Part shown: positions 1 through 33,034 of the stretch, one piece after another
Layout of the letters: every line of letters starts with the position of its first letter
Numbering within the stretch: the first letter of the stretch is position 1
Assembly (NCBI RefSeq): GCF_016026235.1
Contig: NZ_CP065613.1
DNA: 64,000 nt
From: Escherichia coli
GTDB lineage: Bacteria; Pseudomonadota; Gammaproteobacteria; Enterobacterales; Enterobacteriaceae
Reading direction: 5' to 3' (one strand)
Program-made: the position numbers and the translations under genes
Notes under the pieces: generated by a model
What the model was told of the DNA's origin: nothing
The model's input: only the letters and a program-made list of their open reading frames with translations
Database searches by the model: none

Positions 1-34
1 ACGAAACCATTCGTATCCGGCATTCTTCAATAGA

Positions 35-2353
35 TTACAACGTAATTGTCAGCGCATTCCCTTGAGGAGTCACCACCAGTCCCTGCTCACTTTCAGCCTG
101 CGAACCGCCTTGCAGACCATTTACTTTCACAACATTGCGCAAGCACAGCGTCCAGTTCTTCGCCTCGCCCGCACCAGTCACAGTAATCGTGTTGCCAGTA
201 CGTGCTGCTTTTAAAGTAAAGATCACCGAACCGTCAGCAGCGGGCACTTCACAGACGGCTTCATGCCCGTCTTGCAGTTTAAAGAGCTGGAATGCCGTAC
301 CTTCGTGCCACGCGTAATCGGGACGTTGATCGTTGTTGCCCAGCGCCAGTAGGGTGTTATCACGCACATAAACGGGCAGACTCAGGAAGCCGTGCTGCTG
401 TTTATGCCAGCGACTACCGTCGAGCTCATCGTTGTGCCACAGGTGTGTCCAGCGACCTTCCGGCAAGTAGAACTGCACCTCGCCCTCCTCAGTGAACACC
501 GGAGCAACCATCACGTTGTCGCCTAGCATGTATTGACGGTCAAGGTAATCACAAGCCGGATCGTCCGGGAACTCCATCATCATGGCCCGCATCATCGGCG
601 TACCCCGCGCGTTCGCACGCGCAGCTTCACGATACAGATACGGCATCATGCGGCATTTCAGTTGCGTGAAGAAGCGCACCACATCACAGGACTCATCATC
701 GTAGGCCCACGGCACACGATAAGATTTGCTGCCATGTAAACGACTATGGCTGGAGAGCAAACCAAACGCGCACCAGCGTTTGTAAACGTGCGCCGGCGCG
801 GTATTCTCAAAGCCGCCGATATCGTGGCTCCAGAAGCCAAAACCTGAAAGGCCAATAGACAAACCACCGCGCAGGCTTTCCGCCATTGATTCGTAGTTAG
901 CGTAACAGTCGCCACCCCAGTGTACCGGGAATTTCTGCGCACCGACGGAGGCCGAGCGGGCAAACAAGACAGCTTCTTCCTCACCAACGGTGTCCTTGAG
1001 CACGTTCCACACCAGTTCGTTGTAGATGTACGCATAATGGTTATGCATTTTCTGCGGATCGGAACCGTCAAACCACTGAACATCAGTTGGGATACGTTCG
1101 CCAAAGTCGGTCTTAAAGCAATCAACGCCCATCGCGACCAGACCTTTCAGTTTGTCGGCGTACCATTTGCAGGCATCCGGATTGGTAAAGTCATAAATCG
1201 CCAGACCTGGCTGCCATTTATCCCACTGCCATAGCGAACCGTCCGGGCGTTTGAGTAAATAGCCTTTCTCTTGTAACTCTTTAAAGACGGGGGATTTTTG
1301 ACCGATATAGGGGTTAATCCAGACGCAGATTTTCAGCCCTTTCGCTTTCAGGCGGCGGATCATCCCTTCCGGGTCAGGGAAAGTCAGCGGGTCCCACTCA
1401 AAATCGCACCACTGGAAGGCTTTCATCCAGAAACAGTCAAAGTGGAAAACATGCAGCGGCAGATTGCGTTCCGCCATACCATCGATAAAGCTGTTTACCG
1501 TCGCTTCGTCGTAGTTGGTGGTAAATGAAGTGGTTAGCCACAGGCCGAAGGACCACGCGGGCGGCAGCGCCGGACGACCAGTAAAGCGGGTATAACGATC
1601 AAGTACCGCTTTCGACGTCGGGCCGTCGATAACAAAGTATTCGAGATATTCACTCTCAACGCTGAACTGCACTTTGGAGACTTTCTCCGATCCCACTTCA
1701 AAAGAGACACACTGGGGATGATTGACCAGTACCCCATAACCACGGTTAGTCATGTAGAACGGGATATTTTTATACGCCTGTTCAGTACTTGTGCCGCCGT
1801 CCCGGTTCCAGGTCTCTACCGTCTGGCCATTGCGCACCAGGGCAGTAAAGCGCTCTCCCAGACCGTAAACTGTTTCGCCAACGCCAAGATCAAGCCGCTC
1901 AAACATATAATTGCGTTGATTATTCGTGTCCTGCACGTAGCCATTATTTTTCACCTGACTACCGGTAATACGTTCGCCGTTGCGCAGAAAATCCAGTGAC
2001 CAGAACTCACCTTTGCTGACACGCGCGCTTAAGTTGCCACTTTTAAACTCAGCATAACGTTCTGTGTTTTCGATTGTGACCTTCACGTCCTGCAAAATAT
2101 TGAGCGGATAATGAGGGCCGTTATTCAGCGCCCCCTGAAAATGCTCAATCCGCACCCCGACAATACCTTCCTGTGGGGAGAAAAAGCGCAGCGTAAATAA
2201 AGGCGTGTCAAGCTGCCATGTACGTTCACGTACATCACGGGGGGCAGCATAGACCACCATTTCATTACCCTGCTGTTCAACCTCGAACACCTGAAGCGGG
2301 TGAATCAAATTGAGGCCAGGTTGAATCAACCAGTTTCCATCGCTAATTTTCAT
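35..2353 (-). CDS. yicI: alpha-xylosidase, glycoside hydrolase family 31
   Basis: 772-aa ORF; translation recognised as E. coli YicI, same length as I recall. Confidence 0.9.
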
Positions 2354-2362
2354 TGCCGTTCC

Positions 2363-3745
2363 TTAGTTCTGCACTTCTTGAGAGGTGAATTGTTGCTGGC
2401 AACGGCGTTTGCCCTGAGCCAGCTGTTCCATAACGGTTTTCAGATTGTGCGTCGTGAGTGAGTAGTAGCGTTTAGCGATAATCGCGCTCAGCAAATAACA
2501 GATCGCCGGAACAATCGTGAATAGCGCGATAATGATGCTAATCGTGGCGCTGTTCTGCGCTTTTTCTGCCGCATCATATCCGCCATAAGCCAGCATCCAG
2601 CCGATAAGAGCGCCGCCGAAGGCCAACCCCAGTTTGAGCACAAACAGCGTGCCAGCAAAACTGATCCCGGTCAGGCGTTTACCATTGCACCACTCGCCGT
2701 AATCGACGGTATCGGACATCATTACCCACTGGATAGGTGTCACCAGTTGATGCAACACACCAATCACGAAGATGAAGACAAACATAGTGATGCTGGCCTG
2801 CATGGGAACAAAGAACATTGCGAGGCTAATCACTGCCAGCAGGGCGTTCGTCCACCAGAAGATAGTGACTTTACATTTCCAGTCGGTCAGCGGTTTTGCC
2901 AGTGCGGAACCAATCAGGTTACCCACGCAATAAGTGGTGAGAAAAGCGACAAACACTTCCGGCGTACCCAAAATCCATGTGACGTAATACATCATCGCCC
3001 CACCGCGTACGCACACCGCCAGGATATTGAAAATGGTTAGTAAACCGACAATCCGCCACTGGTCGTTTTGCCAGATATCACGTAAATCTTCCCGCATAGA
3101 CGTCGTTGTAGGTGGTGCTTCAACGCGTTCTTTAGTGGTGAAGAAACAGAATGCCAGCATCATGAATGCCACCACGGAAAGGACCGCGATACCGCCCTGG
3201 AAACCGAGTGGTTTATTATCACCACCAATTAAATTAACCAGTGGCATCATCAGAACAGTAGAGAGCATGCCTCCCGCGGTCGCCAGCACAAAACGCCAGA
3301 ATTGCAGCGAGATACGCTGAGTCGGGTCATTGGTGATTACACCACCCAATGCGCAGTAAGGGATATTGACGACGGTATAAAGTAAGGTAAGTAGGGTGTA
3401 AGTAATTGCTGCATAGATCATTTTTCCGTTCATAGTGAGATCTGGCGTGCTATAGGCCAGTACACAGACGATCCCGAATGGCAGTGCGCCAAACAGTACC
3501 CACGGACGAAATTTACCCCAGCGAGAGCGCGTTCGATCGGCCAACAATCCCATGCAAGGATCGGAAATCGCATCCAGTGCACGAGCGACCAAAAACATGG
3601 TTCCGACAAATCCGGCAGGAATGCCAAAAATATCGGTATAAAAGAACATCATATATAACATTACGTTATCGAAAATAATGTGGCTGGCGGCGTCTCCCAT
3701 GCCATAACCAATTTTCTCTTTAACGGACAACACTTCACTCTTCAT
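2363..3745 (-). CDS. yicJ: sugar:cation symporter (GPH family), likely co-transcribed with yicI
   Basis: Track ORF is 479 aa; trimmed to the internal Met (MKSEVLSVKEK...) giving 460 aa, with an AAGGA-like RBS upstream. Lies 10 nt upstream of yicI on the same strand. Confidence 0.85.
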   Translation of the reverse strand: MKSEVLSVKEKIGYGMGDAASHIIFDNVMLYMMFFYTDIFGIPAGFVGTMFLVARALDAISDPCMGLLADRTRSRWGKFRPWVLFGALPFGIVCVLAYSTPDLTMNGKMIYAAITYTLLTLLYTVVNIPYCALGGVITNDPTQRISLQFWRFVLATAGGMLSTVLMMPLVNLIGGDNKPLGFQGGIAVLSVVAFMMLAFCFFTTKERVEAPPTTTSMREDLRDIWQNDQWRIVGLLTIFNILAVCVRGGAMMYYVTWILGTPEVFVAFLTTYCVGNLIGSALAKPLTDWKCKVTIFWWTNALLAVISLAMFFVPMQASITMFVFIFVIGVLHQLVTPIQWVMMSDTVDYGEWCNGKRLTGISFAGTLFVLKLGLAFGGALIGWMLAYGGYDAAEKAQNSATISIIIALFTIVPAICYLLSAIIAKRYYSLTTHNLKTVMEQLAQGKRRCQQQFTSQEVQN

Positions 3746-4000
3746 CTGCTTTTCCTTGATGCTATAGGGGTGCTGAGACCGATAACGCATTTTGTAAACC
3801 ATCCCTGTGAGAGCGAATATTCCGATATCTGGTTATTAATTTATGATTCTTGTTTTATGTGATCGTGGTAGCGTTAATTCCGCTCATATATCATTGTAAA
3901 ATATGGGTTTTATATGAACTATAATGCTTTCGTGATAATACGCTGCGTGTATTAGGCGGAAAAAACTGATCTGGGGGATGTAGAAACTCAAGGAAGTAGC

Positions 4001-4006
4001 TATAAT
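4001..4006 (+). promoter_or_regulatory. candidate -10 hexamer (TATAAT) for selC
   Basis: Perfect TATAAT about 32 nt upstream of the tRNA 5' end; the -35 is weak. Confidence 0.35.
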
Positions 4007-4037
4007 GCGCCCCGCCTCCATGTAGCAATCGAGGCGC

Positions 4038-4132
4038 GGAAGATCGTCGTCTCCGGTGAGGCGGCTGGACTTCAAATCCAGTTGGGGCCGCCAGCGGTCC
4101 CGGGCAGGTTCGACTCCTGTGATCTTCCGCCA
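4038..4132 (+). tRNA. selC: tRNA-Sec (selenocysteine tRNA)
   Basis: 95-nt sequence GGAAGATCG...TTCGACTCCTGTGATCTTCCGCCA with a long variable arm and encoded CCA; recognised as E. coli selC. Confidence 0.95.
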
Positions 4133-4769
4133 AAATGCCTCTTCTGACGTTCTCCAATCCCTTGTAATACTGTCAATCCAGATATTTTCTACTGCTCAAT
4201 ATTCAATCGGCTTCAGGAATACCTGGTCAAAGGTTTTGTGATGGACGATGAGCAGCTGAAGAATCCGCCTGTCGGTTCTTCTGTCCTCGAACGCATCCGC
4301 GATATTCGCGCCAGCATGCGCCGTGTTTATTTGCAGGTGATTTGCCCCCCTGCTGACTCTCAGCCAACTGTATCGCCATTAAGGTGAAGATGTTGTTTTA
4401 CACGCTCCAGAACACCCTTTTTTATACGACTATTCTATTCCTTTAACAGCTGGCGAAAAAAACTGACCTATAAACCTCACCAATAATCAGACTGCCATCA
4501 AGATTAATTTGTTAATTTAATATATCAAATCAACTTGTTTTATTTTTACTATCAAAAATAGCTCATTGCCTTACTATAATTAATATATAAATTCGGTAAT
4601 TAATTCTTAACATGCTTTTGCTAATAATCTCAATTGCTGGCCCTATAATATTGCGCTAGCATTGCTTTCTGGTTGTATCAGCGATACTCAAAAATTCTTA
4701 ATACAATACTCATTCGACTGGTACTTATTTGTAACTCAGTTATATTTTGTCGCTCGGTGATTCAGAAGA

Positions 4770-5954
4770 ATGCAAAAAACGGCTACCACTCCATCAAAAA
4801 TACTTGATCTCACTGCCGCGGCATTTTTACTTGTCGCCTTTCTGACGGGTATTGCGGGCGCTCTTCAGACTCCTACCCTAAGTATATTCCTCGCAGATGA
4901 ACTGAAAGCCCGTCCTATAATGGTAGGTTTTTTCTTCACCGGTAGCGCTATTATGGGAATTCTGGTCAGTCAATTTCTGGCAAGGCACTCCGATAAACAA
5001 GGCGACCGTAAATTACTGATTCTGCTATGTTGCTTATTTGGAGTGCTGGCCTGCACGCTTTTTGCGTGGAATCGCAACTACTTCATTCTGCTCTCAACGG
5101 GCGTACTTCTGAGTAGTTTTGCTTCCACCGCAAACCCGCAAATGTTCGCCCTCGCCCGTGAACACGCCGATAGAACAGGCCGTGAGACGGTCATGTTCAG
5201 TACATTTTTACGTGCTCAGATCTCGCTTGCCTGGGTTATCGGGCCACCGCTCGCTTATGAACTGGCAATGGGATTTAGTTTTAAAGTGATGTATCTCACC
5301 GCTGCCATCGCATTTGTTGTTTGCGGGCTGATAGTCTGGTTGTTTTTGCCATCAATACAAAGAAATATTCCTGTCGTTACCCAACCCGTAGAAATTTTAC
5401 CCTCCATCCATAGAAAGCGAGATACGCGGCTACTTTTTGTGGTTTGTTCAATGATGTGGGCGGCGAATAATCTCTACATGATAAATATGCCGCTATTTAT
5501 TATTGATGAACTGCATCTAACCGATAAACTGGCTGGAGAAATGATTGGTATCGCTGCCGGTCTGGAAATTCCGATGATGTTAATCGCAGGCTATTACATG
5601 AAACGTATTGGCAAGCGACTATTAATGCTCATTGCTATCGTGAGTGGAATGTGTTTTTACGCCAGCGTACTCATGGCGACGACTCCGGCGGTTGAGCTGG
5701 AATTGCAAATTCTTAATGCCATCTTCCTTGGTATTCTCTGTGGTATCGGCATGCTTTATTTTCAGGACTTGATGCCTGAAAAAATAGGCTCTGCGACAAC
5801 GTTATATGCAAATACTTCACGCGTCGGCTGGATTATCGCCGGCTCTGTTGACGGAATTATGGTTGAAATCTGGAGCTACCATGCGTTGTTCTGGCTGGCG
5901 ATAGGGATGTTGGGTATTGCGATGATTTGCCTGCTGTTTATTAAAGATATTTAG
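4770..5954 (+). CDS. setC: sugar efflux transporter C (MFS)
   Basis: 394-aa multi-pass membrane protein; recognised as SetC. Confidence 0.85.
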   Translation: MQKTATTPSKILDLTAAAFLLVAFLTGIAGALQTPTLSIFLADELKARPIMVGFFFTGSAIMGILVSQFLARHSDKQGDRKLLILLCCLFGVLACTLFAWNRNYFILLSTGVLLSSFASTANPQMFALAREHADRTGRETVMFSTFLRAQISLAWVIGPPLAYELAMGFSFKVMYLTAAIAFVVCGLIVWLFLPSIQRNIPVVTQPVEILPSIHRKRDTRLLFVVCSMMWAANNLYMINMPLFIIDELHLTDKLAGEMIGIAAGLEIPMMLIAGYYMKRIGKRLLMLIAIVSGMCFYASVLMATTPAVELELQILNAIFLGILCGIGMLYFQDLMPEKIGSATTLYANTSRVGWIIAGSVDGIMVEIWSYHALFWLAIGMLGIAMICLLFIKDI

Positions 5955-6064
5955 CTCACCAGTCTGGGCTAAGAAAAATCGGCGTGGCGCAAACAGAGCC
6001 ATCCTCGCCATTTTTGCTATCATGCCTGCATACATAAACGACAAAACAGTATGCAGAGGGAAAA

Positions 6065-6988
6065 ATGGGTTCCACCAGAAAGGGGATGCTGAACGTTCTG
6101 ATTGCCGCCGTGTTGTGGGGAAGTTCAGGGGTCTGCGCGCAATACATCATGGAGCAAAGCCAGATGTCGTCGCAGTTTTTGACTATGACGCGTTTGATAT
6201 TCGCCGGTTTGATTCTACTGACGCTGTCATTTGTTCATGGCGATAAAATCTTTTCTATTATTAACAATCATAAAGATGCCATTAGCCTGCTGATTTTTTC
6301 CGTGGTTGGCGCGCTAACTGTACAGCTCACTTTTTTGCTAACCATCGAAAAATCGAACGCAGCCACGGCAACGGTGCTGCAATTCCTCTCACCGACGATT
6401 ATCGTCGCCTGGTTCTCACTGGTGCGTAAATCGCGCCCGGGCATTCTGGTTTTCTGCGCTATTTTGACATCGCTGGTCGGGACTTTTTTATTGGTGACAC
6501 ACGGTAATCCGACGTCATTATCGATCTCTCCTGCCGCGTTGTTCTGGGGCATTGCCTCGGCATTTGCTGCTGCATTCTATACCACCTATCCCTCAACGCT
6601 AATTGCCCGCTATGGCACGTTACCAGTCGTCGGCTGGAGTATGCTGATTGGCGGTCTGATTCTGTTGCCTTTTTATGCCAGACAAGGAACAAACTTTGTC
6701 GTTAACGGCAGTTTGATTCTGGCGTTTTTTTATTTGGTGGTCATTGGTACGTCCCTGACATTTAGTCTGTACCTGAAAGGAGCACAATTAATTGGCGGTC
6801 CAAAAGCCAGCATTTTGAGCTGTGCAGAACCATTAAGTAGCGCGCTACTCTCTTTGCTGTTGCTGGGGATCACGTTCACATTACCGGACTGGCTGGGAAC
6901 GCTGCTGATTCTGTCATCGGTGATTTTGATTTCAATGGATTCCCGTCGCCGCGCCAGAAAAATAAATCGTCCGGCGCGGCATGAGTGA
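6065..6988 (+). CDS. yicL: EamA/DMT-family inner-membrane transporter
   Basis: 307-aa hydrophobic protein; recognised as YicL. Confidence 0.85.
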
Positions 6989-6991
6989 GAA

Positions 6992-7810
6992 TTACCAGCC
7001 AGGCACCGCGCCACCGTTAAAAATGGTTTCTGCCGCTTTAGCGACTTCGGGTGATTGATAAGATTGCAGAAATTCCTTCACGTTTTCTGCATTCTTATTA
7101 TCTTCCCGTGCCACCAAAATATTCACATACGGCGAATTCTTATCTTCAATAAATACGCTGTCGTGCACCGGAGAAAGCCCTGTCTGCTGAATGTAAGTGG
7201 TGCTGATAATCGCTACATCAACTTTGGGATCATCCAGTACGCGCGGAAGCTGCGCCCCCTCGAGTTCCATAATCTGCAAATGACGAGGATTATCGGTTAT
7301 ATCCAGCGCGGTAGGTAATAACCCTTTTCCCTCTTTCAGAGTAATTAGCTTCTCTTTTTGCAACAGTAAAAGTGCGCGACCAAGGTTGGTCGGGTTGTTG
7401 GGGATCGCCACTGTCGCGCCTTCTTTTATTTGCGCCACGGTTGTGATTTTTTTGGAATAACCCGCCATAGGGAAGACAAACGTATTTCCCACCGCTACCA
7501 GTTTATAACCATGCGCCTGATTATCTTGTTCAAGAAAGGGTCGATGCTGGAAGACATTCGCATCAAGTTCGCCATGATTTGTCGCATCGTTCGGTAGCAA
7601 CGAACCGCTAAATCCTACCAGTTCAACATCGAGGCCATATTTCTCTTTTGCCACCTTTTTAGCGACTTCCGCGACATCTTGTTCTGCGCCATTTATAACG
7701 CCAACTTTAATGTGTTTTGCATCGCTGCTACTCTGGTCGCAACCTGCCAGCAGAATTCCGGCCAGCAATAATGCGGCCCCTGTCCGTAGATGATGTGTTG
7801 TCAGTTTCAT
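6992..7810 (-). CDS. nlpA: lipoprotein 28 (NlpA/MetQ family)
   Basis: 272 aa with signal peptide and LAGC lipobox; recognised as NlpA. Confidence 0.9.
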   Translation of the reverse strand: MKLTTHHLRTGAALLLAGILLAGCDQSSSDAKHIKVGVINGAEQDVAEVAKKVAKEKYGLDVELVGFSGSLLPNDATNHGELDANVFQHRPFLEQDNQAHGYKLVAVGNTFVFPMAGYSKKITTVAQIKEGATVAIPNNPTNLGRALLLLQKEKLITLKEGKGLLPTALDITDNPRHLQIMELEGAQLPRVLDDPKVDVAIISTTYIQQTGLSPVHDSVFIEDKNSPYVNILVAREDNKNAENVKEFLQSYQSPEVAKAAETIFNGGAVPGW

Positions 7811-8031
7811 TTTTTTATCCTTTTATTAATGATTACCTGACTATAGCGGTAAGGTCGCTGCGGTTTAAAAAACGAAACGCTATCGATAAGAATAAAAAGG
7901 AATAAAAGTGGAATATAAAGTCTGGCACTTCTTACTGACCACGCAAGCGCGTTTCGTACAGCATGATGAGAGCGATGAAAGCAAACTACACTTATGCTTC
8001 ATTCGATACACATTTGTAAAAGGTTGAATCC

Positions 8032-8325
8032 ATGAAACCAACGACACTACTGCTTATTTTCACTTTTTTCGCTATGCCAGGCATCGTATACGCCGAGTCG
8101 CCTTTTAGCTCACTGCAGTCCGCAAAAGAGAAAACCACGGTATTACAAGATTTACGTAAAATTTGCACGCCACAGGCGTCATTATCAGATGAAGCGTGGG
8201 AAAAGTTAATGTTGTCAGATGAAAACAATAAACAACATATACGCGAGGCCATCGTGGCGATGGAACGTAATAATCAGAGCAATTATTGGGAAGCGTTGGG
8301 TAAGGTAGAATGCCCGGATATGTAA
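8032..8325 (+). CDS. yicS: small secreted protein of unknown function
   Basis: 97 aa with N-terminal signal peptide; position and size match YicS. Confidence 0.7.
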   Translation: MKPTTLLLIFTFFAMPGIVYAESPFSSLQSAKEKTTVLQDLRKICTPQASLSDEAWEKLMLSDENNKQHIREAIVAMERNNQSNYWEALGKVECPDM

Positions 8326-8365
8326 GAACAGCAACAACTACTGACCAACGCTTCTTTACCTGATA

Positions 8366-9556
8366 TCAGGATTTCTTCATTTTCACCTTTGCAGTAACCA
8401 ACAATGCAGTCAGCAACATCAATGTGCCGGACAACATCAACGGCGAAGTCAGACCAATATTATCCAGCGCATAACCGCCGATTGCCGCACCACAGGTATT
8501 AGCAAGCTGAATAACCGCCACCTGAATAGACCCGGCTTTTTCTGCCTGATCGGCCAGCGAGCGGGTGATCCACGTTGACCAGCCGACGGGAACCAATGCA
8601 AAAGTTAGCCCCCAGATAATCGCCACGCCGGTAGCAACGATTTTATCGCTTCCCCACAACGTCAGTACCAACGCACTCACAGCCAGTATTAACGGCGCGC
8701 CTGCTAAGGCCAGTTTTACCGAACGTTTAAGAATGAACGACGAAAGCGACGTACCAATAAAGCTGGCGATACCAAAACTCAACAGCACCAGCGTTAAGCC
8801 ATCCACGCCGAATCCCGCCAGGTTCATATACACCGGGCGAATATACGTGAAGAAAGCAAACTGCCCGGCGAAAGACATGAAGATGGCGATCATCCCTGCC
8901 ATCACACCCGGACGTTGTAATAAGCGGAAAGTATTTTGTTTCTGATGCGAGGGTTCGCCTGGCAGCGAAGGCAATGATTTGATAATCCAGAAAATACACA
9001 ACACGCCCATCACCGCCGCCGCATTAAAGACATTGCGCCAACCGATAAGCTCGCCTAAAAAACTGCCCAACGGCGCGGCAATCACCAGCGCAATAGAAAC
9101 CGCGCCGAAGATCACCGACAGCGCCTTCGGCACCGTACGCGGCGGTACCAGACGCATGGTCAGCGACGCCGACATCGCCCAGAACCCGCCCAGCGCCAGC
9201 CCCAGACAGGCACGACCGATTAAAAGCAAACTGAATGAGTTAGCAAAGGAAACCAGCAAACAGGAGAGCGTCAGCAAAACGGCAAATAAAATAACAACGT
9301 AGCGGCGGTCAGTAGCCTGAATTGTCTGGGTAATAAACAAACTGGCAAACATTGCCACAAAGGCGGTCACGGTCACCGATTGCCCGGCAACCCCTTCCGA
9401 AATGCCTAAATCCTGGGCCATTGGCGTCAACAAACTGACGGGCAAAAACTCAACGATAATCAGACAGGCGACGCAAAACGCCACCGAGAAAACGGCTGAC
9501 CAGTTCGGTCGGGTGATGGCATCCGCGCCGCGGTTTTCGGCAATAAATTCACTCAT
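8366..9556 (-). CDS. nepI: purine ribonucleoside efflux pump (MFS)
   Basis: Track ORF is 438 aa; trimmed to [15 protein letters not shown]... giving 396 aa, the length I recall for NepI. Confidence 0.85.
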
Positions 9557-9783
9557 GGTGTTACCCGTGGCATGTTTCAGGGGAAAAGCCGACCACTTTA
9601 ACATTGAAATGTGTGACGCATTTAACGTTTTTGCAACTTTTACGGTGTTGTGGGAAAAGTTCGAGGCTGCTCGAAGAAACAAAAATCATAGGGCAAGCTG
9701 ATATGCATTTTCGCGATTGGGTTGGGAATAAGGGATAAAGTATTGCACTTGGTGATATACTTTAATAACAGGACCTCAACGAT

Positions 9784-10143
9784 ATGCGCGTGTTTAAAAC
9801 CAAATGGTTTGCAAGGGAAGCCAGGTCTCATGCAATAACAGATGAAGAGTTGTGCCGGGCCATTTTAGAAACGGAGCAAGGTAAAGCTGATGCACTTGGT
9901 GGTGGCGTTTTTAAAAAGCGCCTTCACCAAAATCGTGAGCGTGCAATTATTCTGGCAAAAGGGGGAAGCAATTGGTTTTACACGTTTTTATATGCAAAAC
10001 AGGATATGTCGAACATCAATAGTCAGGAACTGGCTGGGTTTCGTGAACTTGCAAAGCATTATGCCTTCCTGACGAAAGCCCAGCTAACAGCAATGATTAA
10101 CACTAAAGAACTGACAGAGATCTGCTATGACTGCAAAAACTAA
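9784..10143 (+). CDS. putative type II toxin, RelE/ParE superfamily (HigB-2-like)
   Basis: 119-aa basic protein; overlaps the downstream HTH gene by 17 nt (ATGACTGCAAAAACTAA). Family assignment is from architecture and recalled resemblance, not a search. Confidence 0.55.
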   Translation: MRVFKTKWFAREARSHAITDEELCRAILETEQGKADALGGGVFKKRLHQNRERAIILAKGGSNWFYTFLYAKQDMSNINSQELAGFRELAKHYAFLTKAQLTAMINTKELTEICYDCKN

Positions 10144-10450
10144 ATTTAAAAGTCCTGCATTTGAGGCTATTCACAGCGCAGCGGCTGGATTGTCCAGCGT
10201 CGATGCTATTTCTGCCGAAACAATGCGTACTTTTGACAAAGCCTGCCTGACCAGCGTGCAAGACTTACAACCTGTTGAGATAAAAGCACTGCGGGAAAAA
10301 TTAAAAGTGAGTCAGCCCGTCTTCGCTCACTATCTCAATACCAGCGTTTCAACTGTACAAAAATGGGAAAGTGGCGCTAAACGCCCCAATGGCATTTCAT
10401 TAAAACTGCTCAGCATTGTGCAAAAACACGGGCTGGATGTGCTGCTGTAA
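10127..10450 (+). CDS. putative antitoxin, helix-turn-helix (Xre-like) DNA-binding protein
   Basis: 107 aa with a C-terminal HTH-like segment (...SQPVFAHYLNTSVSTVQKWESGAKRP...); translationally coupled to the upstream toxin-like gene. Confidence 0.55.
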   Translation: MTAKTKFKSPAFEAIHSAAAGLSSVDAISAETMRTFDKACLTSVQDLQPVEIKALREKLKVSQPVFAHYLNTSVSTVQKWESGAKRPNGISLKLLSIVQKHGLDVLL

Positions 10451-10491
10451 ATAGAACGTAGATAATGCGTCACCTACTGTCAGTTCCGATA

Positions 10492-12298: not shown

Positions 12299-13593
12299 CC
12301 TGAGGGATCCCCAGAAAATTTAGTAAACCATTATCATATTGGTATACCGTTGCTGTAGAACTTTCAGCCCTGCGTCAAGTGACAGTGTGTTTAGTATGAG
12401 TGGAGAATGTCGAATCACATTCTCCGCCAGTTTTAATAACGAGATGACTCGCCTGTGCTTCACTGTATTTGCCTGATATTTATGATGTATCCCTTTGTTT
12501 TCCAGGCTGAAACCGCTTAACCACATAATGATACTGGCTAATGTTGCGATCAGACTCAATACCGTGACCCGCCCGGATGAATGACTGGCACCAAACCGTA
12601 GTCCAAATCCCCAGCGAGGATTTTTTCATCCCTGAAATTTTGCTCAATTTGCATTCTACGGCTGTATAATTTCATTACCTGTTTTGGCGAGAACTCAGTA
12701 CTGTTTGTGAAAATAAACCATGGTGATTTCCCGGCAGTACGAGCTTTAGCCGTCACCGATGGTCTGGTTGCTCTTTCCTTCGAGCGTTTAAATCTACGAC
12801 CTTTAGACTTACTTTTATAAAGATAAAAATGCCCTTCATGTTGTGCATTTTTATCTCGACCCAGCAGGCCTTCATCTAAATAAATTGCTGTCGTTGATGC
12901 TTTTGTGCCTGAGTCCGACACCTTTTCCCAGCCATTACCAACATTGTAATAATGATTGCCCAGTACCCGGCAAATATAGGTCCAGCCACGGGAGCGGAGC
13001 TGTTGGAACCATCGCCCCTGAAAACCGGCATCTGTAATAACAATGACATCAGTCCCGGGGGAAAAGCACTCAGCAAGCGATTCCAGAAAACGCTCATGTA
13101 CATCTGCATTCGCTGTCTGTGATGATGGAACGACACAACTCATCAACGGTAAAGAACGCCCGTCACATGCCAGGCTTGCCCGCAAAAGCTGAAAACGAGA
13201 GGCATGATAAGCACTCCAGTCAATGAGTATCACAACACGAGACATTCCCCGCGTAATCTTTTGGGTAATTCGCTGAAAAATGGTGGAAACCTCATTTTGC
13301 AAATGTCGATTCCCCAACAGTCGATCCACCCGCTTTATTTTGTTTTTAACTGATGCCGTACCGGTTAAATGACGCCCGATACTGGTAAGTGTGAGGGAAG
13401 CGCCATTTATTACAGCATTAGTTGCGTCAATCAGTGATTTTTGACGGTAAAGATGCAAAGGGGCCAGTATGTTGTTAAGGAAATTTTGGCATAATGAACG
13501 TGCAGGCATAGTGGTGATCTCCTTGAAATTGTTAGCACAATCAATTAGATCACATCTCACTATGCCTGTCTTGTTTTCTGGGGATTCCTCAGT
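12299..13593 (-). mobile_element. IS4-family, IS10-like insertion sequence (~1.29 kb) inserted in adeQ
   Basis: Terminal inverted repeats CTGAGGGATCCCC (left) and GGGGATTCCTCAG (right) resemble IS10 ends; flanked by direct repeat TGGTCATCC at 12290-12298 and 13593-13601. Boundary is ambiguous by 1 nt. Confidence 0.8.
12320..13509 (-). pseudogene. IS10-like DDE transposase, frameshifted
   Basis: Translation from MPARSL... shares blocks with IS10 transposase (NKIKRVDRLLGNRHL, DAGF, YLYKSKSKGRRF, YSRRMQIEQNFRD). Reading frame changes near 12619-12626 at an A6 run; the C-terminal ~80 codons continue in the adjacent frame. Confidence 0.75.
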
Positions 13594-23606: not shown

Positions 23607-23686
23607 ATTTAGCGTGCGGGTTGGAGTTGGGGGCTTCTTCTACCAGCAGAATGTTTGCACCTGCGCTGCCTGTGCCCCTCACCCTA

Positions 23687-23787
23687 GCCCTCTCCCCAAA
23701 GGGGCGAGGGGACCGTCCCGTGCAATGTTTAGCTCATTTTCTGAAAGGGAACGGTGGTTTCCCCCTCGCCCTTTCAGGGAGAGGGTT
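23687..23787. repeat. two copies of a ~26-nt hairpin-forming element in inverted orientation
   Basis: GCCCTCTCCCCAAAGGGGCGAGGGGA (23687-23712) versus the reverse complement of TCCCCCTCGCCCTTTCAGGGAGAGGGTT (23760-23787). Confidence 0.5.
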
Positions 23788-23974
23788 ACAGTTCGCACGT
23801 AATCCCTTCCGGCAACATTTATTGCCGCTTTTGTTTACATATTCTGCCGTTTTGCTTTTCGCCATTCCCGGCACATATCTGGCTAACATTCATCAATGTG
23901 ATAGATTCCTCTCCCGCATTTATGGGAATGCGTAGTGACTTATTCTAATTATTTTTATAAAAGCATCCGTGATA

Positions 23975-30336: not shown

Positions 30337-33034
<2,698 letters not shown>

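Follow-up and report, generated by a model that had tools for sequence, protein, structure and literature searches.

An unoccupied selC attachment site in Escherichia coli retains a fragment of rhuM

The gene rhuM is known from the selC-proximal (left) end of the Salmonella island SPI-3 (PMC5966662), and among lineages it is often missing or fragmentary at that position (PMC5966662, PMC3680342). We analyzed the surroundings of selC in a 64-kb stretch of E. coli DNA (contig NZ_CP065613.1), hereafter the window, and compared them with E. coli K-12 MG1655, with other E. coli haplotypes and islands, and with the selC loci of other Enterobacterales. Positions 12–9650 of the window correspond to MG1655 positions 3,832,196–3,841,834 at 99.07% identity, and both sequences have the gene order yicI-yicJ-selC-yicT-setC-yicL-nlpA-yicS-nepI. 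No strain-specific cargo block was found beside selC, the window being collinear with K-12 from yicI to nepI. The locus is ordinary and already annotated, and the small ORF singled out in the original prediction is a catalogued pseudogene.

The selC gene occupies positions 4038–4132 on the forward strand and encodes a tRNA-Sec with the anticodon UCA (tca), as located by ARAGORN, by Rfam RF01852 and by the position of K-12 selC (b3658). It is the sole tRNA gene that ARAGORN reports in the 64-kb window, and its score against RF01852 (83.8 bits, E = 1.5e-17), above the gathering score of 47, identifies it as a tRNA-Sec gene. A spacer of 637 bp (4133–4769) follows, and setC begins at 4770, in the succession that had been read from the sequence alone.

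The attachment (attB) region used by islands comprises the last ~24 nt of selC and ~15 nt downstream (~4109–4147, forward strand), and is intact and present in a single copy in the window. It was delimited from island-bearing E. coli, in which the match to the spacer side begins at query positions 72–74, that is, at window positions 4109–4111 (rows H15–H20 of our comparison); this marks attR, the second copy of the selC 3′ end, located at the distal boundary of the island. The reading frames of two predicted proteins (P0001 and P0002) cross the translated selC 3′ end at such attR junctions. All haplotypes have the sequence up to position 4147 in common and diverge beyond it.

An occupied site would be expected to show an adjacent integrase, a tRNA repeat at the far end of the island and a block of cargo genes, and none of the three was found within the window. 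A search that allowed up to three mismatches detected no second copy of the 26-nt selC 3′ end in the 64-kb window, and blastn-short with positions 4090–4150 as the query gave, elsewhere in the window, only chance matches of at most 12 nt. With the P4-type integrase from the selC island of E. coli MRY15-131 as the tblastn query, the best match in the window had E = 2.4, and nothing credible was found in the window or in the spacer. One candidate for an integrase remnant in the spacer, a match of 19.6 bits that surfaced only with a tiny search space and a word size of 2, lies on the antisense strand of the rhuM fragment described below and was rejected as noise. The selC attachment site is intact and currently unoccupied in this window, and selC leads directly into the K-12 spacer. 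The original prediction of an island-free selC, with neither an integrase nor a direct repeat of the tRNA 3′ end, was therefore correct for the window.

The spacer has a GC content of 38%, compared with 51.3% for the whole window, and its composition is uneven, with 54% GC in positions 4241–4387 and 31% in positions 4388–4769. The region immediately upstream of setC (4373–4769, forward strand) is AT-rich, at 31% GC, and has no detected homology to rhuM, to integrases or to any Rfam family; the Rfam scan of the spacer matched the tRNA and no other structured RNA. A consensus scan of the spacer for promoter- and terminator-like sites yielded one weak terminator-like site and one antisense promoter-like site, not above the level of shuffled sequence. 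The AT-rich part presumably carries the setC promoter. The spacer had been described as AT-rich non-coding DNA, and it indeed contains no intact gene, but ~240 bp of it (4133–4372) are recognizable gene debris.

The spacer could be taken for the ordinary intergenic DNA of a pristine selC site that was never occupied, with a 48-codon ORF open by chance: neither an integrase nor a repeat nor any intact foreign gene is present, and promoter- and terminator-like sites are not in excess. The ORF itself argues otherwise. It extends from an ATG at 4241 to a TGA at 4387 on the forward strand, with the coordinates and peptide sequence originally given, and a GTG one codon upstream of the ATG would yield a 49-aa product. 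Although the ORF had been considered of unknown significance, it coincides with an annotated pseudogene, yicT, and belongs to an internal fragment of rhuM (4211–4372, forward strand) that is recognized by tblastn, Pfam and PADLOC as well as by the K-12 and PGAP annotations. K-12 yicT (b4653, 3836425–3836556) corresponds to window positions 4241–4372 and has the same position between selC and setC, and PGAP labels the stretch as 'rhuM: RhuM family protein', pseudo, 'missing N-terminus and C-terminus'.

In tblastn, positions 4211–4372 align to residues 121–185 of the 345-aa RhuM, and 42 of the 65 aligned residues are identical (E = 4e-17 with the protein from E. coli ATCC 11775 as the query, 6e-17 with that from E. 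hormaechei). The fragment has in-frame deletions of 8 and 3 codons, and ~120 N-terminal and ~160 C-terminal codons of the gene are gone. The homology starts 10 codons upstream of the ATG of the ORF and in the same frame (LQEYLVKGFV/MDDEQLK..., with the slash at the ATG), and the ORF is therefore the open remainder of the fragment frame, opening at an internal Met and closing at the first stop codon past the homology. Correspondence residue by residue (LQEYLVKGFVMDDE.LKNPPVGSS...LERIRDIRAS) speaks against a compositional artefact. The match to Pfam PF13310 (Virulence_RhuM) spans profile positions 61–98 of 252 and, at 24.8 bits (E = 1.5e-5), stays below the gathering score of 33.7; with no complete domain in an intact ORF of ~340 aa, the homology is real but fragmentary and does not amount to membership of the family in a functional sense. 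Likewise, the PADLOC model PDC-S05 matches the remnant with E = 3.3e-16 but only at positions 118–166 of 346, short of full length. NCBIfam and PHROGs provided no family for RhuM or for the 48-aa peptide, and a full-text literature search for yicT returned only noise. The window peptide differs from that of most strains by Q instead of R in MDDE(Q/R)LK.

The statement that no foreign genes follow selC thus has to be revised: a fragment of rhuM is present, and rhuM is a gene known from Salmonella SPI-3 and found intact after selC elsewhere. The original prediction had pointed to integrase remnants in the spacer, detectable by similarity search, as evidence against itself; a similarity search did reveal a remnant in the spacer, in keeping with the spirit of that proposal, but the remnant is of a cargo gene and not of an integrase.

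An intact counterpart is provided by E. coli ATCC 11775, in which selC is followed, after 52 bp, by a 345-aa rhuM gene (PF13310, E = 4.5e-118) whose product matches PDC-S05 with E = 2.8e-173 over positions 1–339 of 346. About 110 bp past the rhuM stop, ATCC 11775 has a degenerate copy of the selC 3′ end together with 13 nt of downstream sequence (CGACTCCTGTGATC[delta TTCC]GCCAAAATGCCTCTTC), distinguished by a 4-bp deletion. A gene for a 122-aa hypothetical protein with no Pfam match and then yicL follow this repeat, and setC is absent. The rhuM gene between selC and the degenerate repeat forms a ~1.2-kb integrase-less islet (6069–7247 of the ATCC 11775 locus, L009). The window and ATCC 11775 cease to be homologous at 4147/4148 and become so again at 6036, 29 bp ahead of yicL; window positions 4148–6035 are swapped in ATCC 11775 for rhuM, the selC repeat and the hypothetical gene. 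Among 5426 complete E. coli genomes, selC is contiguous with yicT in 2489 (46%) and with the 5′ end of an intact-type rhuM in 789 (~15%), and the remaining ~2150 have other sequence after selC.

The DNA between selC and the fragment also derives from rhuM. The 77 bp at positions 4133–4209 (forward strand) are a remnant of the rhuM 5′ leader, 80–83% identical to the stretch that separates selC from the rhuM start codon in E. whittamii (L058), in Escherichia sp. E1V33 (L044) and in one further locus (L026). A pristine, never-occupied site accounts neither for this leader, nor for an ORF frame whose homology to RhuM and PDC-S05 begins before its own start codon, nor for the intact rhuM at the same position in 789 E. 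coli genomes, and we consider it extremely improbable.

The leader meets the codon-120 region of rhuM at a shared GCTT, and a junction of this kind suggests a simple deletion of ~0.4 kb. In E. whittamii and E1V33, all that is left of rhuM is its leader and the initial 14 codons (MSDKRLT.SPTGEF), beyond which the sequence is unrelated (within the first ~160 bp after selC). This is an independent and different truncation. In E1V33, ~1.4 kb of unidentified DNA lies ahead of yicL.

We consider it very probable that the locus is the standard K-12-type empty selC–setC interval and that yicT is a decayed relic of rhuM from a former selC-linked element, with support limited by the shortness of the fragment (65 aligned residues). 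The ancestor would have been a selC-integrated element of the form integrase-rhuM-..., from which the integrase and the far-end repeat were later lost; this integration step rests on other genomes, and the window keeps no integrase trace or attR. With rhuM once directly behind selC, a deletion of ~0.4 kb at the GCTT microhomology would have joined the ~77-bp leader to codons ~121–185. The fragment would then have undergone two further small in-frame deletions and been cut off at ~4372. AT-rich DNA and setC occupy the place that, in other E. coli, is held by the 3′ two-thirds of rhuM, the degenerate selC repeat and the hypothetical gene. The site is empty now, yet it is most probably the fossil of a selC-linked element and not pristine.

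At aligned DNA positions, the remnant is ~91% identical to the intact rhuM of ATCC 11775, compared with ~99% identity in the flanks, which argues against a recent derivation from the ATCC 11775 allele. The fragment and the ATCC 11775 gene are old alternative forms, neither being a recent derivative of the other. Two ENA metagenome contigs (L003 and L004) and a protein (P0010) join an intact-type RhuM N-terminus to the 3′ part of a K-12-type yicT. We considered L003 and L004 as a less-decayed intermediate and rejected this interpretation: the two halves meet in a ~75-bp stretch common to both haplotypes. Both contigs are short, one has low coverage, and none of the 5426 complete genomes covers at least 80% of the L004 arrangement. 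They are probably assembly chimeras.

The route to the present arrangement may have been decay in place or the import, by recombination, of an already decayed haplotype. The setC gene (4770–5954, forward strand; a 394-aa ORF annotated in K-12 and by PGAP as a sugar efflux transporter) belongs to the haplotype-specific segment 4148–6035, and its GC content is mostly ~41–51% in 300-bp windows. The AT-rich region 4373–4769 has no counterpart in the haplotype of ATCC 11775 or in the selC loci of 80 other species, and neither this region nor setC has similarity to the DNA downstream of ATCC 11775 rhuM or to the 80 species loci. The AT-rich remainder of the spacer and setC constitute a segment specific to this haplotype. 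A broader proposal is that the whole 4148–6035 block was imported by homologous recombination from a divergent Escherichia lineage and replaced an intact rhuM haplotype. Its boundaries at 4147/4148 and 6035/6036 are sharp, with ~99% identity outside; the leader is nearer to those of E. whittamii and E1V33 than to that of ATCC 11775; and the ~9% divergence of the remnant from ATCC 11775 rhuM and the lower GC content of setC point in the same direction. However, none of the 80 other-species loci, many of them short, showed setC downstream of selC, and hence no donor was found. Such an import is possible but doubtful, and it would alter the route rather than the object, which would still be a rhuM relic at an empty selC site.

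The relic could also be conceived of as having been co-opted, its 48-aa ORF acting as a functional small protein or as a regulatory element, for example on setC or on integration at selC. The frame has remained open for 48 codons, both internal deletions being in frame, the same 48–49-aa product is predicted in many genomes (P0022, 186 member sequences), and the stretch is kept in about two-thirds of E. coli genomes. Against this, only ~38 of the 252 positions of the RhuM domain are covered, in strains FORC_042 and N2250 PGAP records a stop codon within the fragment, and the variants differ at several residues, some being truncated (P0004, P0022 and shorter clusters). Moreover, no promoter-like site precedes the ORF, B2-type genomes do not have this form, and the closest complete genome carries an IS1 in the spacer. 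In that genome, FDAARGOS_943 (NZ_CP065615.1), the element is an IS1A inside the selC–setC spacer, an insertion that the window does not have, and the spacer thus tolerates disruption. Co-option is improbable in our judgment, and the sequence features listed here suggest that the 48-codon ORF is most likely functionless.

Beyond E. coli, we scanned one genome per species with a 37-mer of the selC 3′ end, which yielded the 80 Enterobacterales loci referred to above. In 13 of them, a RhuM homolog, intact or fragmentary, is encoded no more than ~3 kb past selC, and in 11 the distance does not exceed 1 kb. The 13 loci belong to Escherichia (E. albertii), Morganella, Erwinia, Citrobacter, Kosakonia, Hafnia, Franconibacter, Huaxiibacter and one metagenome-assembled genome. 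A P4-type integrase directly follows selC in 24 of the 80 loci, and in two of the 13 selC and rhuM are separated by a decayed P4-type integrase. In E. albertii the intervening integrase is truncated; in M. morganii only a scrap of it precedes rhuM, after which the selC end is repeated at +3.5 kb. Of the loci compared, E. coli ATCC 11775 and M. morganii alone showed direct repeats around rhuM, and we accordingly rejected an islet of rhuM bounded by repeats as a general rule.

In E. hormaechei, the order is yicJ-selC-drt3a-drt3b-hicB-symE-rhuM, with rhuM 4.3 kb downstream of selC. The segment concerned (NZ_CP077309.1, locus L006, 1230–6678) encodes the drt3a-drt3b antiviral reverse transcriptases, hicB, symE and a full-length rhuM, has no annotated integrase and represents a small defence island at selC. 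NZ_CP077309.1 is catalogued as a 607-kb 'plasmid' and resembles a chromosome fragment.

An empty selC is accordingly not the same as one that was never occupied: the spacer of the window keeps a scrap of rhuM, a gene of which other E. coli, as well as other genera, have intact relatives at the corresponding position. The recurrence of rhuM right after selC, at times behind decayed integrases or beside defence genes, offers a modest lead to the function of RhuM (PDC-S05). One could go further and propose that rhuM is an ancient gene kept preferentially in first position behind selC and functionally tied to the hotspot, for instance by serving a family of selC-targeting elements in defence or exclusion, with the yicT scrap expressed as a 48-aa peptide of residual role. 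We regard this as a long shot, and our analysis yielded no support for a function of the scrap.

The distribution of the empty state also bears on its proposed 'commensal-type' character, which was not substantiated. The contiguity of selC with yicT is the commonest state in E. coli, as the frequencies above show, and includes strains named STEC384 and ETEC1739; it is therefore uninformative on pathotype and unusable as a sign of commensalism. The genome nearest to the window is, in addition, rich in IS elements.

Several other differences between the window and K-12 lie outside the selC–setC interval. Between nepI and yicN, an 839-bp segment (9651–10489) takes the place of 41 bp of K-12 and contains two forward-strand ORFs (9784–10143 and 10127–10450), which encode a RelE-family toxin (PF06296, E = 8.8e-42) and an HTH/MqsA-like antitoxin; the pair is annotated by PGAP in other E. 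coli genomes, including that of an O157:H7 strain. An IS4-like element of 1.29 kb (12301–13590; of the ISEc60 family according to the PGAP names of its matches) interrupts adeQ, with an overlap of ~13 bp in K-12 coordinates that suggests a target duplication. Among complete E. coli genomes, none matches 80% or more of a query that bridges the insertion. Elsewhere, FDAARGOS_943 contains at least 38 ISEc60 copies, and the element also resides on ~290-kb plasmids, for instance in strain CFSAN029787. In the tisB–emrD interval, 177 bp (23625–23801) replace 38 bp of K-12, and at the yidL/glvG junction (31457–31948) the window has ~0.5 kb of extra DNA relative to K-12, in which glvG is a pseudogene.

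Several described systems are close to this locus. The selC islands of E. coli (LEE, and CP4-like or P4-integrase islands) use the same attachment site and have the yicT–setC spacer after their attR copy (L008; rows H15–H20), as in strain N2250, where the end of a CP4-like island and a partial selC copy are followed by the same yicT–setC spacer. In contrast to the window, which has neither, they carry an integrase or LEE genes directly after selC, exemplified by the integrase in MRY15-131 and the LEE genes in Z1322HEC0003. The likeness to Salmonella SPI-3 is at the level of family and landmark: its rhuM is of the PF13310 family, lies at tRNA-selC and is subject to variable deletion. The gene content of SPI-3 reportedly also includes sugR, misL, marT and mgtCB (Blanc-Potard et al. 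1999). SPI-3 is, however, an island of ~17 kb, and sugR, misL, marT and mgtCB are all absent from the window. PDC-S05 of PADLOC is a phage-defence candidate rather than a demonstrated system, of which the window holds only a non-functional fragment. The haplotype of ATCC 11775 and 788 other genomes has the same flanks (yicJ-selC and yicL-nlpA), with rhuM directly after selC in the same orientation; it differs in having the full 345-aa rhuM, the selC repeat and the hypothetical gene and in lacking setC, whereas the window has codons ~121–185 of rhuM and setC. The selC-yicT-setC interval of K-12 MG1655 has the same genes, in the same order and with the same spacer, and the window is separated from it only by point differences.
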